DNA from: Thermodesulfovibrionia bacterium
Lineage (GTDB): Bacteria > Nitrospirota > Thermodesulfovibrionia > JACRGW01
DNA: 64,000 nt
Reading direction: 5' to 3'
Assembly: GCA_919902655.1 (NCBI GenBank)
Contig: CAKKRL010000162.1
Location: 251 to 64,250 of the forward strand
The notes below the pieces were generated by a model that worked only from the letters and a program-made list of their open reading frames with translations, had not been told where the DNA came from and did no database searches. Shown here piece after piece: positions 1 through 36,166 of the stretch; positions within the stretch are counted from its first letter, which is position 1, and the number at the start of each line of letters is the position of its first letter. The position numbers and the translations under genes are program-made.

Positions 1-2
1 AT

Positions 3-281
3 ATCGCTGTAGCAGTATTCTTTATTGCCGGTGTTTCTAAGGTCAGGGTGCAGCTCGGAAAGGGACTCATATGGAGGATATTAATGATACTCTATACAGC
101 CTTTTCATTATTCATCTACCATTATATAGAAATACCTTTAATTGTCCTTCTACCCTTACTGGATAACCTTATCTTTTCTATTATGCCTTACAGGATAAAA
201 TTAAAGGTGATTGGCTGGATAGAAGTTTTAAAAGGAATTATCTTCTTACTGCTAATGGTATTTTATTATAAGTTTGTATAG
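3..281 (+). CDS. C-terminal fragment of a hydrophobic membrane protein; the reading frame is open to the window edge. The listed ORF 48..281 begins at an internal GTG.
   Basis: No stop codon in frame from position 3. The translation is highly hydrophobic (LIWRILMILYTAFSLFIYHYIEIPLIVLLPLL). No recognisable family. Confidence 0.3.
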   Translation: MAVAVFFIAGVSKVRVQLGKGLIWRILMILYTAFSLFIYHYIEIPLIVLLPLLDNLIFSIMPYRIKLKVIGWIEVLKGIIFLLLMVFYYKFV

Positions 282-290
282 AAATAAAAA

Positions 291-330
291 AGGAGGGGGG
301 GGGGGGGGGAACCCCCCCCCCCCCCCTCCT
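291..330. terminator. Perfect homopolymer hairpin AGGAG-G14-AA-C14-CTCCT, a bidirectional intrinsic-terminator-like structure between convergent genes.
   Basis: Read directly: a run of 15 G, then AA, then 15 C, flanked by the complementary AGGAG/CTCCT. It lies between the stop of the plus-strand ORF (281) and the stop of minus-strand htpX (348). Confidence 0.55.
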
Positions 331-347
331 CGTCTCTTAATCCCTTT

Positions 348-1196
348 TTATCCCCTAACCATCGCCTCAAGCCTTGCGATCCTCTTCTCCATCGGAGGAT
401 GGGTGCTGAAGAGTTTAAGAAGCCCTCTTCCGGAAAGTGGACTAACAATGAACATATGAGCTGTGGCAGGGTTTGCCTCAAGTGGTATCCTCTGAGATGC
501 GATATGGAGCTTCTTCAGGGCGTTTGAAAGGAAAAAGGGGCTTCCTGCAATCCTTGCCCCTGCCTCATCTGCAGAATATTCCCTTGATCTCGAAATTGCC
601 ATCTGGATAAGGAGGGCGGCAATCGGCCCTACAATCATCATCGCAAGGGCAACAAGCGGATTCCCTCCTCTATCATCGTCATCACTGCTTCTTCCTCCAA
701 AAAGCATTGCCCAGTGTGCCATCTGTGCAAGGTAGCTTATCGCACCAGCTATGGTAGCAGCAATGGTCCCTATGAGGATATCCCTGTTTTTTACATGGGC
801 AAGCTCATGGCCTATTACGCCTGCGAGTTCATCCCTGCTGAGTATCCTCATTATACCTGTCGTCACAGCTACTGCAGCATGGCTTGGGTTCCTACCAGTT
901 GCAAAGGCATTTGGAGAATCGTTCTCCATGATATATACCTTCGGCGTCGGGATAGATGCCTTCTGGGCAAGTGTCCTTACTGTACTGAAAAGCTCGGGTG
1001 CATCCGCCTCTTTAACTTCCTTTGCCCCGTACATCCTGAGTACAATCTTGTCGCTGAACCAGTATGTGACCATATTCATTACGAGAGCAAATCCCAGGGC
1101 CATGGTCATCCCGGATTTTCCTCCCAGGGCAGCCCCTCCCCATATAAGAAGAAGGGTCAGTGCTACCATTAAAACCATCGTCTTTAAACCATTCAT
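348..1196 (-). CDS. htpX: Zinc metalloprotease HtpX (M48 family)
   Basis: HEXXH motif ([11 protein letters not shown]) and N-terminal TM helices. Length and layout fit HtpX, including the C-terminal ...[16 protein letters not shown]. Confidence 0.85.
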
Positions 1197-5704: not shown

Positions 5705-6390
5705 GAAGAAATCCTCCCTTTTCTTATCATCTCCATACCATTTTCTCCGCAGTTAAAAAGGATATCTATGCAGGATAGGTTTGGTTCAAACCCTTCATAG
5801 AGCTGTTGATATACAGGGTGTTTAAAATCCTGGATAACCACCTCTATCCCTGCCCTCTCGAAGGCATCCATGCCCATATATTTCGGTCCGTCCTTGCCGG
5901 AAAGATAGGTATCAGCCCCTACCGACCCGCAGAGGTCTATCAGCCGGCCATCAGGTTCATCCCTCGTTTCAAATTCTGATGCGATAAAAATCTTTTTCTT
6001 TATTCCAAAGAGGTCTGTAAGCATCTTTATCAGAGTGATATTAATATCTACAAGTCTCTCCCAGTTCTTTCTGTATATATCTTCGAAATAAGGAAAATAT
6101 TTTATGAAATATGGCGTCCTTCTGTAATTTGTCTCTATCGCAGTTAAATGTTTCCTCCTCCAGTCTACTCCGTTATTTATCCTCACCTCATTAATCTTCT
6201 CAGGAAATCTGTAAAGAACAGGGACTGTTAACCACTGCCATCCCTGGGATGTTTTTATCCTGTTACGGTTCTGCCATTCATTCTTTTTATACTGGACATT
6301 GTCAAGAAGTATAAATACATCAGACCTGTCTATCTTATCTATATATCCGATCCATGGCATATACTGGGGCTGATGTATAGAGGCCATCAT
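5701..6390 (-). CDS. WbqC-family protein of unknown function, as found in O-antigen clusters
   Basis: The N-terminus MMASIHQPQYMPWIGY is the hallmark of WbqC-like proteins. Confidence 0.65.
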   Translation of the reverse strand: MMASIHQPQYMPWIGYIDKIDRSDVFILLDNVQYKKNEWQNRNRIKTSQGWQWLTVPVLYRFPEKINEVRINNGVDWRRKHLTAIETNYRRTPYFIKYFPYFEDIYRKNWERLVDINITLIKMLTDLFGIKKKIFIASEFETRDEPDGRLIDLCGSVGADTYLSGKDGPKYMGMDAFERAGIEVVIQDFKHPVYQQLYEGFEPNLSCIDILFNCGENGMEMIRKGRISS

Positions 6391-7955
6391 CCATCGAACC
6401 TCACAAAAATCGGATTGGTAATAAGTTGTTCACCAACAGCCAGTCGATAATATATCTTCTTTCCGGGTAGAAAATAATCGTCTTTGTATTTTATCATAAA
6501 ATCTTTCCTGGCAGAAAACGTTTCTTTGACCTCTCCATTCCGTATCAGGAAAATCTTTATTTCTTCTTTGGGCGGCTTTGGAAATTTTATATTTATCGTA
6601 ACCTCTATTCCTTCTCTGCTCTGCAACTCCTCTCCCATTGTCGCCTCTCCATCAGAGCTTCTTAGAGTAAAATCCTCAAGAATCGGTTTATCTATACCCC
6701 TTACCGCATAGGCCCTCCCCTTCTTTAATGCATCTAAAACCTCTTCTTCTTTAAAAACCTTAAGAAAAAATACGGTCTGCGTCATACCCATCCAGTCACC
6801 TTCTTTGTAATCAAGCTCCCCTATAGCCCATACAGGGCTATCCCTCTTACCTTCACAGTAATCCTTCAGAATCTGATCCCACAGTCCACCGGGTTTTCCC
6901 ATGATCTTGTATCCCTCCTCAAAGACAGCAAAGCCAGTGTATCCTTTTGTCTCCATGAGATCGTTGTAATATGGCGACGTACTTACTTTTACCTTCCCGC
7001 CTTCAAAGGCACCACCGGCTTCGTATTTTCCCTCTGCCTCAGGATGTGCCCAGTAGGTCAGGGCATTCTTCTTATTTGCATAATCTATCAGAAACTGGTA
7101 CGGCCCTGTACCCTTATCCCCGTGGTACTGGTTATAGATAGGCTCGCAGAATGGGAAATTATTAATGAGGAAGATGATACCCGATGTCAGGATAATTATA
7201 CCTGTTACAGAATATATCCTCCTTTTCTTTTTAATCGTAAATCCTCTGAGACGATAGACCCTTTCTCCTTTTTTCCTTAAGAGGATAACACCGGGGATAA
7301 AGACTGCTATGGGCCAGAGATTTATTATACAGAAAGGGCCTAATCTTAAAGGAAATCCATATCCCACAGAAGGGATACCATTATAATCCTCAGGACTCTT
7401 CAGGCCCAGGATAAGTATATGCTTATGCCAGTTATTAAGGGTCAGTTCTCTTTTTATAGGATTTCCCTCCCAGTAGTAAAAAGGCACAGCCTCTGCGCCA
7501 TGGAGTATGAGCATATCCGTATATCTCTTCCTTAATTCTTCGATGGTGTCTATATATCTCCCTGAACCGTATTCTCTTATCCCTCCCTTATCAACCCTCT
7601 TTTTTATTATCTTCCTCAGAAGTGGTAGGCCGTATTCAACCCTCATATTGTCATGATCAGTAATAATTGCGATTTTGAGACCTTGATCCCTTACCTTTCT
7701 CACCATCTCCTCTGGAGAAAGCGTGCCGCCTCCTATATTGGTATCGAGATGAATTACCCCCTCAACCCTCAGATATTCCGCAGCAGAGGATTCTGAAATC
7801 GTAAAGAAAAATATGAGAAAAAGAATCCCGAACCAGCCGAATCGATTTTTCCGTTTAAATCCCCCCCTGTCCCTCTTTAACCCCTCTATCTCCCCCCTTA
7901 GTAAGGGGGGAATAAAAGGGGGGTGAGGGGGGATTTTACATCTTTTTAAGGACAT
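6387..7955 (-). CDS. PHP-like metal-dependent phosphoesterase domain protein with internal TM segments. The annotated N-terminus is encoded by a palindromic repeat, so the true start is probably downstream.
   Basis: IHLDTNIGGGTLSPEEMV…KIAIITDHDNM resembles a PHP-domain N-terminus. Hydrophobic stretches sit mid-protein. The first ~35 codons overlap repeat family B and the small ORF at 7936-8115. Confidence 0.4.
   Translation of the reverse strand: MSLKRCKIPPHPPFIPPLLRGEIEGLKRDRGGFKRKNRFGWFGILFLIFFFTISESSAAEYLRVEGVIHLDTNIGGGTLSPEEMVRKVRDQGLKIAIITDHDNMRVEYGLPLLRKIIKKRVDKGGIREYGSGRYIDTIEELRKRYTDMLILHGAEAVPFYYWEGNPIKRELTLNNWHKHILILGLKSPEDYNGIPSVGYGFPLRLGPFCIINLWPIAVFIPGVILLRKKGERVYRLRGFTIKKKRRIYSVTGIIILTSGIIFLINNFPFCEPIYNQYHGDKGTGPYQFLIDYANKKNALTYWAHPEAEGKYEAGGAFEGGKVKVSTSPYYNDLMETKGYTGFAVFEEGYKIMGKPGGLWDQILKDYCEGKRDSPVWAIGELDYKEGDWMGMTQTVFFLKVFKEEEVLDALKKGRAYAVRGIDKPILEDFTLRSSDGEATMGEELQSREGIEVTINIKFPKPPKEEIKIFLIRNGEVKETFSARKDFMIKYKDDYFLPGKKIYYRLAVGEQLITNPIFVRFDG
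7861..7935. repeat. GC-rich palindromic repeat family B, copy 1 (ccccccctgtccc…cccccctta g taagggggg aataaaagggggg tgagggggg atttt)
   Basis: Contains the perfect hairpin CCCCCCTTA/TAAGGGGGG. A related copy sits at 35726-35808. Lies within the annotated N-terminus of the PHP protein. Confidence 0.6.
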
Positions 7956-9346: not shown

Positions 9347-9364
9347 AGAATGACAGAAATAACT

Positions 9365-9769
9365 CTAACTCAACCAATTTTCAACTTTCAAATCTGGTAT
9401 TCTCACAAAATGTCTTTCATTGGATGTTATCAAAGTCAAATCATTCTTTACTGCTGTTGCTGCAATAAGGAGATCCTCTGGCGATATAACTTGTCCCCTG
9501 CTTGCTAATATTGCTGCTAAATCACCTGCGATAATTGCAATCTCTTCAGTAATAGGAAGGATAACTACTTTATCTAACACTTCTGTCTCAATCCTCTTCC
9601 ATAATATCTTATTGTCTGGCCGTCTCTGGCTACCATACCTGAGTTCCATCACGCATATACAAGATGTAAATTGGACTTCAGCAGAAATACTGGAAAGATG
9701 CTCCATAAGGGGTATATTGGGTTTCTTCTTCATGACCTCACTCAGGATATTTGTATCAAAAAGATACAT
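9365..9769 (-). CDS. vapC: PIN-domain toxin VapC
   Basis: MYLFDTNILSE… N-terminus, conserved acidic residues and the TSNERHF C-terminus. Immediately downstream of the antitoxin with a 1-nt gap. Confidence 0.8.
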   Translation of the reverse strand: MYLFDTNILSEVMKKKPNIPLMEHLSSISAEVQFTSCICVMELRYGSQRRPDNKILWKRIETEVLDKVVILPITEEIAIIAGDLAAILASRGQVISPEDLLIAATAVKNDLTLITSNERHFVRIPDLKVENWLS

Positions 9770-10039
9770 TTAACCCTTCCTCTCCTTAACAATCCTGAGT
9801 TTATGCTTATGTCGTTCTTTTAAAATCCTATCAATATCCTTGAAGAATGGGTCTCTAATACCAAGCCAACCTTTTATAGAGCCTAATCCCCTTTCAGATG
9901 GAGCAGATAGGACAGCCACTGGTTTCCCCCTTTTAGTTACAACAACCTCAGCATGGCCGTAAGCCACTCTATTTAAAAGTTCTGAGAAATGTTTTTTAGC
10001 ATCAGCTACGCTCACAGCGATCCTTGGCATAAATATCAC
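9770..10039 (-). CDS. Phd/YefM-type antitoxin paired with VapC
   Basis: About 85 aa with …VSVADAKKHFSELLNRVAYGHAEVVVTKRGKPVAVL…, a Phd/YefM signature. The true start is probably the Met at 10030. Confidence 0.75.
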   Translation of the reverse strand: MIFMPRIAVSVADAKKHFSELLNRVAYGHAEVVVTKRGKPVAVLSAPSERGLGSIKGWLGIRDPFFKDIDRILKERHKHKLRIVKERKG

Positions 10040-10094
10040 CCCCTTTAGGGCATTATAGTCATTTTGGGCAATTTAGTCAATATGACTATAACGG

Positions 10095-11258
10095 TCAGAA
10101 CCTGTAATACTCCGTGCATCTTGAACATACAGGAAAGGCCTTCCTCTCTTTCACCACACGCCTGAAGTTCCTGTATCTTTCTGAATTCCATATATCCCTG
10201 AAGGACGATTCTCGGAGGCTGCCTGCAGAGAAATTGAGGGACTGGCAGGGCCTCACAGACCCATCAGGGAAGATATACGCAACCATCCAGGGACTTATAC
10301 ACCGGTTTCTGTAACTTGCGGGCCAGAATTCGAAGTTACTGTAGTATCTTCTTATCTCCTCGTTCGTGTAGTTTGGATAGAATGAAACATCAATGCTTGT
10401 TTTCATCGACTTAATCTCTACCATCTTTTTTAAAAGCTTCTCTGGTTCTATCCTCGGGAGATCATCCCTCACGAACCCTGCCCAGTCAGGGGAGATACAT
10501 GAAAAACATTCCTTAAAAACCCTGTTATGCTCAGTATATGTATCTTTGCCAGTAAAGATTAGATGGTGGAAAGTGATGGATGTGGCACCCATCTCCTCTG
10601 CAATCCTTACTACCTCACCGAGTCTGTGATAGTTCATCTCAAATACTGTGCTCGATATGTTCACAATCGGCTTTTTTGCTCCGCTCCTGTCCTTTGTCTC
10701 CTTTAACCTTTGAAAACCAGAATAGGCTTTATCAAAGGTCCCCTCACTGCTCCTCATTTCGTCGTGTATGTCCTTTGGACCGTCAAGAGAAAAGATTATC
10801 TCATCAACCCCCAGCTCAACAATCTTCTCTGCATTATCACCGAGGAGGACGCCGTTAGTAATTATATTACATCTCATCTCTCTCTCTTTCACCATCCTTA
10901 TGATATCCGGCCATTCCCAGTATATGAAAGGCTCACCACCGAAGAGGGTGATATTCGGCCTGAATGCCCTTACATCGTTCAGCAGGGATTCTATCTCCTT
11001 CAATGATAATTGTTCCCTTAACATCTCCTGCGGATAGTCCTTCGATGAACCTACCATACCCCACTGCCCGCACATCTTGCACCTCAGGTTACAGCGGTAT
11101 GTGAGGAATAGGGAAATCGTTTCAGGATAGGCACTGTAGCCGTTAAAGAGCTTGTAAGTGAGGTAAGACAGAAACCTTCTCCTGAATGCCTGCCATCCAT
11201 AGGCAGGCTGGGATATCGCCTTGCCGATCGCCCGTTTTATATTTCTAAGAGGGATCAT
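10095..11258 (-). CDS. Radical SAM protein with a C-terminal SPASM/twitch-like Cys cluster, located inside the polysaccharide locus
   Basis: CNLRCKMCGQW (CxxxCxxC). C-terminal cysteines CISPW…RPCQ…CSRC. Overlaps the downstream DegT gene by 4 nt. Confidence 0.8.
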   Translation of the reverse strand: MIPLRNIKRAIGKAISQPAYGWQAFRRRFLSYLTYKLFNGYSAYPETISLFLTYRCNLRCKMCGQWGMVGSSKDYPQEMLREQLSLKEIESLLNDVRAFRPNITLFGGEPFIYWEWPDIIRMVKEREMRCNIITNGVLLGDNAEKIVELGVDEIIFSLDGPKDIHDEMRSSEGTFDKAYSGFQRLKETKDRSGAKKPIVNISSTVFEMNYHRLGEVVRIAEEMGATSITFHHLIFTGKDTYTEHNRVFKECFSCISPDWAGFVRDDLPRIEPEKLLKKMVEIKSMKTSIDVSFYPNYTNEEIRRYYSNFEFWPASYRNRCISPWMVAYIFPDGSVRPCQSLNFSAGSLRESSFRDIWNSERYRNFRRVVKERKAFPVCSRCTEYYRF

Positions 11259-35089: not shown

Positions 35090-36166
35090 TTGTTACTACT
35101 CAGAATCGCAGATATAAACCTTCTCTTTAAGTCTGATCTCAAAGGGCTAAAGATCGGCTATCCTCAAAAGAATTTTATTCATTCCACATTCCCTCAATCC
35201 TCTCCCCAAAAGGGAGTGGAGGCAAAAAAGAAAGTCCCCTCTCCCCAACGGGGAGAGGGTCAGGGTGAGGGGGAAATTATTGACTGCACCATATCTATAG
35301 AACACCACCCTCTACCCTTTAATATTAAAGATAAAGAGATCTTCAGCCATGCAGGACCCTGGAAACTTTTCAGGAACAGAAAAGGTTATAAGATTGCCTT
35401 CTTTTTCCCCGCTTTAAAGCCTGATTATTACATGCTTGCAGAATTTAAAAGGGATTTCTCAAGGGTAAGACTATATATAAAAGACGCGGATCTTCGCTAC
35501 GCTCAGAATGACAAGCGAAGGGCTCAGAATGACAACAAGAAGACCTTTATTATTTCCCATCCCCTTGACCAGCTTTTAGTCATCAACCTCCTCTCCCGTG
35601 GCAGAGGAGTAATGATACACTCCTGTTGTGTCAATGATAACGGAAGGGGTTTCCTTTATGCCGGGACATCTCGCTCTGGCAAGAGTACGACTGCGAAACT
35701 CTGGTTAAAGCAGACAAAACCCTCCGAATCCCCCCACACCCCACTTTGGAAAAGGGATAATCCCCCTTCCTCCCCCTTTATTAAAGGGGGAATAGAGGGG
35801 GATTTTAAAGATATGACAGGAGTGAAGGTTTTAAGCGATGACAGGATTATAATCAGAGAGTTTGATGATAAGATCTATGCCTATGGCACACCCTGGCATG
35901 GGGAGGTAAATGTCTGTGATCCTGGAAGGGTGGAGATAGAAAGGATATTCTTCCTTCAACACTCGACGAAAAACTATGTGAAGTCACTTCCTCCTGTGGA
36001 TGCAGCAACGAGGATGTTTGTCAGATGCTTCCCCACCTTCTGGGATAAGGAAGGTATGGCATTTACACTGAAATTCATAGATGAGGTGGTCAGGAAAGTC
36101 CCCTGCTATGAATTCGGATTCGTGCCGGATAAAAGTGCGGTCAATTTCGTTAGAGGGCTTCGCTGA
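35090..36166 (+). CDS. HPr kinase/phosphorylase-like P-loop kinase (HprK-related). Its N-terminal region carries three in-frame repeat-element insertions. The start is uncertain: the track lists TTG at 35090, and the first ATG is at about 35432.
   Basis: P-loop LYAGTSRSGKST (HprK Walker A pattern G-x-S-G-x-GKS) plus downstream DDRII…GTPWHGE. Repeat families A, C and B lie in frame. Confidence 0.5.
   Translation: MLLLRIADINLLFKSDLKGLKIGYPQKNFIHSTFPQSSPQKGVEAKKKVPSPQRGEGQGEGEIIDCTISIEHHPLPFNIKDKEIFSHAGPWKLFRNRKGYKIAFFFPALKPDYYMLAEFKRDFSRVRLYIKDADLRYAQNDKRRAQNDNKKTFIISHPLDQLLVINLLSRGRGVMIHSCCVNDNGRGFLYAGTSRSGKSTTAKLWLKQTKPSESPHTPLWKRDNPPSSPFIKGGIEGDFKDMTGVKVLSDDRIIIREFDDKIYAYGTPWHGEVNVCDPGRVEIERIFFLQHSTKNYVKSLPPVDAATRMFVRCFPTFWDKEGMAFTLKFIDEVVRKVPCYEFGFVPDKSAVNFVRGLR
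35190..35281. repeat. Palindromic repeat family A, copy 1 (tccctcaatcctctcccc … cccctctcccc aac ggggagaggg … gggtgaggggg), in frame in the HprK-like ORF
   Basis: Shares the core CCTCAATCCTCTCCCC…GGGGAGAGG with copies at 36449-36500 and 50519-50562. Confidence 0.6.
35501..35540. repeat. Repeat family C, copy 1: tandem gctcagaatgacaa(gcgaag)ggctcagaatgacaa, in frame in the HprK-like ORF (encoding AQNDKRRAQNDNK)
   Basis: A near-identical arrangement at 52165-52205 (ggactcggaatgacaagcaaaggactcagaatgacaa) is intergenic. Confidence 0.55.
35726..35808. repeat. Repeat family B, copy 2, in frame in the HprK-like ORF (encoding …SPHTPLWKRDNPPSSPFIKGGIEGDFK)
   Basis: aatccccccacacccc…atcccccttcctccccctttattaaagggggaatagagggggatttt aligns with the reverse complement of 7861-7935. 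Confidence 0.55.

Follow-up and report, generated by a model that had tools for sequence, protein, structure and literature searches.

We consider the hairpin at positions 291 to 330 of the window (the whole stretch of 64,000 nucleotides that was analysed), together with the U-tract that follows it on the minus strand, to be very probably the Rho-independent (intrinsic) terminator of the gene htpX; the anatomy is seen directly, and termination is what this anatomy would predict. The terminator is an element of a known kind. For the G15/C15 core within it, we see an even chance of a sequencing or assembly artefact, which is slightly likelier than a true allele and which we infer rather than demonstrate. 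Whether artefact or allele, the run lengths printed in the contig are not to be relied on.

The features of the region are the following.
1..281, plus strand: 3′ end, 93 codons long, of a membrane-protein gene that converges on htpX and matches YwiC weakly, from the open reading frame and a domain search
281..290, minus strand: putative terminator U-tract TTTTTATTTC, directly 3′ of the stem (complement of 290-281)
291..330, minus strand: probable terminator stem-loop, AGGA-G15-UU-C15-UCCU, from folding; the top terminator-like site in two scans
301..320: hairpin core, the sole part that differs among assemblies, G9-AA-C9 in the window and CGGG-CTGT-CCCCCCG (htpX sense) as its equivalent in assembly L087, from alignments
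348..1196, minus strand: htpX, zinc metalloprotease, Peptidase_M48 (PF01435), 282 aa, from the open reading frame and Pfam; NCBI MEK6693327.1, "zinc metalloprotease HtpX [Nitrospirota bacterium]"

The hairpin lies inside a 66-nt spacer that separates the stop codons of the plus-strand YwiC-like gene and the minus-strand htpX, and its placement between convergent genes in the first-pass annotation is therefore borne out. The stem begins 17 nt from the htpX stop codon and 10 nt from the stop codon of the YwiC-like gene, which ends at 281, and the U-tract at 281-290 overlaps the final base of the TAG stop of this convergent gene. Judged from how NCBI numbers the proteins and from a partial YwiC-like gene that this MAG has on a different contig, the hairpin is probably within approximately 300-720 nt of the end of its 64,433-bp contig.

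On the plus strand, the hairpin consists of AGGA (291-294), G15 (295-309), AA (310-311), C15 (312-326) and TCCT (327-330). The arms are complementary at 19 positions, which comprise 17 G:C and two A:T pairs. An earlier description of this element as a 20-bp stem made up entirely of G:C pairs was thus right about the long G-run, the AA and the C-run and wrong about the length and the composition. In the predicted fold, 18-19 pairs close a loop of 4 nt, as the 2-nt spacer causes the innermost pair to open. Folding gave -48.9 kcal/mol for the plus-strand RNA and -50.6 to -54.1 kcal/mol for the minus-strand RNA; these energies beat all, or almost all, dinucleotide shuffles, and the minus-strand fold was unmatched among 200 of them. 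Based on the base composition, the expected count of G15-NN-C15 in 64 kb is approximately 5e-16, and the arrangement is far beyond chance. Elsewhere in the 64-kb window, G runs do not exceed 6 and C runs do not exceed 7, and G15 and C15 are the sole exceptions. A search of Rfam 15 with the hairpin returned only sub-threshold matches to generic miRNA precursors (19-38 bits against thresholds of 44-105).

The case for a terminator is made by the order of elements on the minus strand. The htpX stop codon is followed by 17 nt, the GC stem-loop and, at once, TTTTTATTTC, and it is because of this spacing and the immediate U-tract that we assign the element, with a high degree of confidence, to the Rho-independent terminators and to htpX. 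RNA polymerase would transcribe the G-rich arm, the short loop and the C-rich arm; the GC stem would then form in the exit channel, and the weak rU:dA hybrid of the U5AU3 tract would release the transcript. The possibility of a terminator had been raised before, with the reservation that the hairpin was very unusual for a native one because it had no U-tract. The first part of this proposal holds. The second is wrong for the minus strand, where TTTTTATTTC stands directly after the stem, and because this tract is on the htpX strand, the element fits the pattern of native intrinsic terminators. A bidirectional role had also been suggested. However, a bidirectional terminator has a U-tract on both strands, and the tract is present here on the htpX strand only: the plus-strand tail CGTCTCTTAATCCC (also given as CGTCTCTT and CGTCTCTTAATC) contains none. 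The same asymmetry is found in the sister species, in which the U-tract is solely on the htpX side. Because CGTCTCTTAATC lacks a U-tract and the sister species is asymmetric too, we consider the bidirectional terminator to be unsupported.

The dimensions usual for intrinsic terminators are a stem of about 5-14 bp, a loop of 3-8 nt and a U-rich tract of about 6-9 nt. The stem and loop measure 18-19 bp and 4 nt in the window, 15 bp and 7 nt in L087 and 10-11 bp and 5-7 nt in the sister species. The element has in common with known intrinsic terminators a GC-rich stem-loop that lies a few nucleotides past the stop codon, a U-rich tract directly after it on the strand of the terminated gene, a position that is kept in orthologous loci, and stem pairs that are kept via compensatory or wobble changes. 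It differs from them in that the window stem has 19 bp, of which 15 are one homopolymer pair, with a loop of 2-4 nt and an energy of approximately -50 kcal/mol, which makes it far longer and stronger, whereas the L087 version (15 bp, 7-nt loop, stem of approximately -30 kcal/mol) is at the upper edge of normal terminators. For biology the element is of little consequence, as htpX would end in an intrinsic terminator as in many relatives. Hairpin-plus-T-tract terminators are rare in the 64 kb; a strict scan gave four sites, all of them on the minus strand (331-290, 7499-7483, 35259-35237 and 36248-36230), and the first is by far the strongest. The stem of the 35.2-kb terminator is CCCTCTCCCC/GGGGAGAGGG, a motif that recurs at the start of the related locus L083.

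HtpX relatives at 91-94% identity led to approximately 15 additional loci, which come from JGI, ENA, NCBI and a large number of Logan run assemblies. In the sense of htpX, the sequences past its stop codon are as follows.
Window: GAGACG AGGA G15 TT C15 TCCT TTTTTATTTC
L087 (R3, same species): GAGACG AGGA GGGGGGCGGG CTGT CCCCCCGCCCCCC TCCT TTTTTATTTC
L086 (R2, same species): GAGACG AGGA G16 N10 C14 TCCT TTTTTATTTC
L083 (JGI; HtpX 94% identical): GGGGGGCGGG CCGAAGA CCCGCTCCCC ATTTCTTATTTT
L128-L140 (HtpX 91-92% identical, approximately 13 independent runs): GGGGGGTGGGC TGGAG GCTTGTCCCCC TTTTTTAC

At the position of the window hairpin, L087, L083 and L128-L140 likewise have a hairpin with a U-rich tail. 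The 5′ arm G6-(C/T)-G3 is common to three lineages, and the interrupted arm is therefore taken as ancestral. In the consensus fold, a 10-bp core is kept in all seven aligned sequences from four lineages; one pair of this core is U-G in four sequences, C-G in two and G-C in one, which is the window. Judged from these alignments, the native stem in the lineage is an interrupted G/C hairpin of about 10-15 bp with the 5′ arm G6-(C/U)-G3. The first G run of the terminator in L128-L140, approximately 25 nt past the htpX stop, is mostly G6, with G7 in L133, G5 in L139 and GGGAGG in L135. The more distant htpX loci L003, L009, L012 and L039 likewise end in ordinary terminators. Thus, related genomes do not bear out the homopolymers reported for this site: orthologous hairpins occupy it, but without long G runs. 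Furthermore, no long G/C run was found among 80 htpX loci from species-representative genomes (best HtpX match 71% identical), and 500 kb of other htpX loci contained no G run of 10 or more. Two locus-specific pattern scans of JGI metagenome contigs gave no match and missed even the known JGI relative L083; therefore, the scanned collection was without these samples. A search of run-level contigs for partial HtpX fragments that cross the hairpin returned full-length relatives only.

Further evidence on the core comes from the same population, that of the Hainich groundwater well H51, as represented by the assemblies L086, L087 and L092. Some reads may be common to the ENA, Logan and window assemblies; these are separate assemblies, but perhaps not separate data. 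ENA assembly ERZ1292639 (L001/L087) matches the window at 99.6% identity across 10 kb and has AGGAGGGGGGCGGG-CTGT-CCCCCCGCCCCCCTCCT at the site; its flanks are base-identical up to AGGA and TCCT, and approximately nine differences fall inside the 20-nt core. In ENA assembly ERZ1292634 (L086), which is otherwise nearly identical to the window, the site is G16-N10-C14, that is, a scaffold gap flanked by runs whose lengths differ from 15/15. The Logan contig L092 (run ERR3858132) stops at ...AAAAAAGGAGGGGGG, which is AGGAG6 and corresponds to window position 300. This is the last base common to the interrupted and the homopolymer versions, and such an end is what a branch in the k-mer graph of that run would produce. 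The homopolymers are thus irreproducible across assemblies, being interrupted in L087, gapped in L086 and cut off at AGGAG6 in L092, and the disagreement of these three assemblies of one population justifies the early warning of an assembly or sequencing artefact. In addition, L086 carries SNPs of the L087 type at 2575-2644 and yet has poly-G arms; therefore, the state of the hairpin is independent of the haplotype.

The same comparison provides several observations on the population itself. Differences between the window and L086, L087 and L090 form tight clusters at 1390-1394, 2575-2644 and 5773-5923, in mosaic combinations, and the last of these consists of 22 SNPs in 150 nt of a WbqC-family gene. 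The clusters suggest short recombination tracts, or consensus switching between coexisting strains. The population is clearly a mixture of strains. A second scaffold gap in L086 (N100 at its positions 1750-1849, equivalent to window 9347-10102) stands in place of approximately 750 bp that both the window and L087 have; genes for a PhdYeFM antitoxin and a PIN toxin are called in this segment.

An artefact of short-read sequencing would arise at a stable hairpin that begins with G6 from either side; two-colour Illumina chemistry would call the lost signal G, which would be seen as C on the other strand. On such instruments (NextSeq/NovaSeq), G is the call for a cluster that gives no signal (fastp paper, PMC6129281). 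The kit behind the Hainich H51 libraries was NEBNext Ultra FS and the instrument a NextSeq 500; BBDuk served for trimming and metaSPAdes for scaffolding (PMC8672522; bioRxiv 10.1101/2021.10.13.464073). Later Hainich libraries were sequenced on NovaSeq 6000; the evidence on chemistry refers to these runs of the population. Read inward from either side, the hairpin begins AGGAGGGGGG, and real G and dark-cycle G are therefore inseparable until the first non-G base; in both arms, this base is where the versions diverge. The link between the hairpin and the dark-cycle G calls is one that we infer ourselves, as our search of the literature on hairpin-induced poly-G artefacts returned nothing specific beyond the general poly-G description (PMC6129281). 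The distance from the ancestral core points in the same direction: to reach G15-TT-C15, approximately four substitutions or deletions and the expansions must fall in 15 nt, while the genomes elsewhere differ by 0.03-0.4%.

The resemblance to two-colour poly-G artefacts extends to several details. G runs that enter from both strands appear as a G-run followed by a C-run on one strand; the run lengths vary by assembly; there is a scaffold gap in one assembly; the site is near a contig end; the public reads of the population come from NextSeq 500; and similar blocks occur within real inverted repeats in IMG/VR. A scan of IMG/VR for at least 14 G, 0-8 nt and at least 14 C found 34 loci (L093-L126), with runs up to C50. 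The block is no more than 200 nt from the end of the retrieved sequence in 25 of the 34, and this is a true contig end in at least a dozen. Four blocks (L095, L097, L111 and L123) are inside a further inverted repeat of 4-7 bp, with implausible runs up to G31/C38, and look like real hairpins whose core has been replaced. Equal arm lengths such as those of the window are uncommon among the blocks (three of the 34), which is a point against the artefact. L107 and L110 are one 4,461-bp contig from two samples, and the run lengths differ at the same site. These G-run/C-run blocks, some of them within real inverted repeats, are scattered in public contig collections, and they need checking at the level of reads before they are read as roadblocks, quadruplexes or phase-variable tracts. 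The lesson for data quality is that a striking homopolymer hairpin in a MAG conflicted with what replicate assemblies of its population show.

The artefact has difficulties of its own. Classic poly-G tails terminate the reads, and trimming or tip clipping normally removes them. In the window, however, the contig is continuous and reads through a symmetric G15-AA-C15, the arms are equal, and the two central bases are neither G nor C; a simple artefact model explains none of these properties. A de Bruijn assembler prints such a core only if the reads hold the G-run/TT/C-run k-mers. We looked for a way in which dark-cycle G tails, with no other cause, could give rise to the TT/AA in the centre or connect the G-run to the C-run, and found none. 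Moreover, the G/C-run hairpin at 7860-7935 is identical in three assemblies (the window, L086 and L087); therefore, hairpins are not generally collapsed in these data. The interrupted hairpin of L087 was itself sequenced at 5x coverage. Simple miscalling of the interrupted version was rejected, as the central T/A positions and the 5-nt difference in length do not fit. Furthermore, several strains are mixed in this population and their differences cluster tightly, so that a real second allele could exist in it.

The reading that survives best after the artefact is that the element is the same htpX terminator and that G15-UU-C15 is a genuine allele of one aquifer strain, to which we give a substantial probability that nevertheless falls short of even. 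A change of C to G in the 5′ arm, with the matching change of G to C in the 3′ arm, would fuse G6 with G3 and C6 with C6 into runs of 10 and 13; these runs would readily slip and expand, while the arms would stay symmetric through intrastrand template switching within the palindrome. Such a stem would make an unusually strong terminator whose length varies. In its more specific form, a very recent real allele that is derived from the ancestral G6-C-G3/C3-G-C6 and segregates alongside it in one population, this account is perhaps a shade less probable. It agrees with the continuous and symmetric passage of the contig through the hairpin and with the arms of a second assembly, L086, where the G run is 16 or more and the C run 14 or more. 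At the conserved pair, C-G has become G-C, a compensatory change. Both versions appear to coexist in one run, as L092 breaks at the point of divergence, and the G6 run of the sister species is 5, 6 or 7 across runs, which is variation of the slippage type at this very arm. The other local clusters of differences in the population are also in keeping with an allele, and poor sequencing of a 19-bp GC stem of dark G runs would explain both the gap and the G16 of L086.

Several points weigh against a genuine allele. It requires many mutational steps in 15 nt of genomes that are otherwise more than 99.6% identical and with unchanged immediate flanks, and runs of intermediate length (7-14) are absent from the window and from 14 orthologous terminators. 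The poly-G state is unlinked to neighbouring haplotype markers, and the supporting data all appear to be two-colour short reads. In addition, homopolymer runs of this length would be highly unstable in vivo because of slippage. A diverged relative as the source of the allele, through recombination, was rejected, since the flanks show no difference as far as the edge of the stem. If the allele is true, the two arms of the terminator would have evolved in concert and very fast, the stem being "homopolymerised" via a compensatory change, runaway slippage and palindrome-templated correction into an extreme, length-unstable terminator of approximately -50 kcal/mol.

It is improbable that the hairpin is a dedicated bidirectional roadblock, a G-quadruplex or a phase-variable element instead of a simple terminator. 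Because the hairpin is palindromic, it would form on the transcripts of both convergent genes, and G15 can in principle form an intramolecular quadruplex. However, the U-tract is on the htpX side only, with CGTCTCTT as the tail on the plus strand and an equal asymmetry in the sister species; the complementary C15, 2 nt away, would out-compete quadruplex folding with a duplex of -49 kcal/mol; and the orthologues are without long G runs. The tract shares with the poly-G tracts of contingency loci in Campylobacter, Neisseria and Haemophilus a long G/C homopolymer whose length seems to depend on the sample. Contingency loci, however, sit in coding regions or promoters and switch expression, whereas the tract in the window is 3′ of both genes and pairs with its own complement. 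The phase variation proposed on first inspection therefore has no target, since the runs are 3′ of both genes and outside coding regions and promoters, where a change in length cannot switch a reading frame or the spacing of a promoter. A chimeric mis-join of contigs that end in poly-G and poly-C, which many IMG/VR blocks at contig ends or between seemingly unrelated flanks would recall, or a cloning remnant of dG/dC tailing is very improbable and was rejected: the order YwiC-like gene, htpX, nifU and M29 peptidase recurs unaltered in L086 and L087 and is kept in the sister species, not one base of the flanks differs as far as AGGA and TCCT, and shotgun metagenomes involve no cloning step.

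Two further hairpins of the window are built from G and C runs. The composite hairpins at 7860-7935 (-46/-50 kcal/mol) and 35735-35805 (-37/-43 kcal/mol) consist of runs of C5-7 and then G5-6 with AT-rich bulges between the runs, and both end in GGGGG(G)ATTTTA. Both appear to be copies of the same type of intergenic element, and the copy at 7860-7935 overlaps the 5′ end of a called 522-aa open reading frame.
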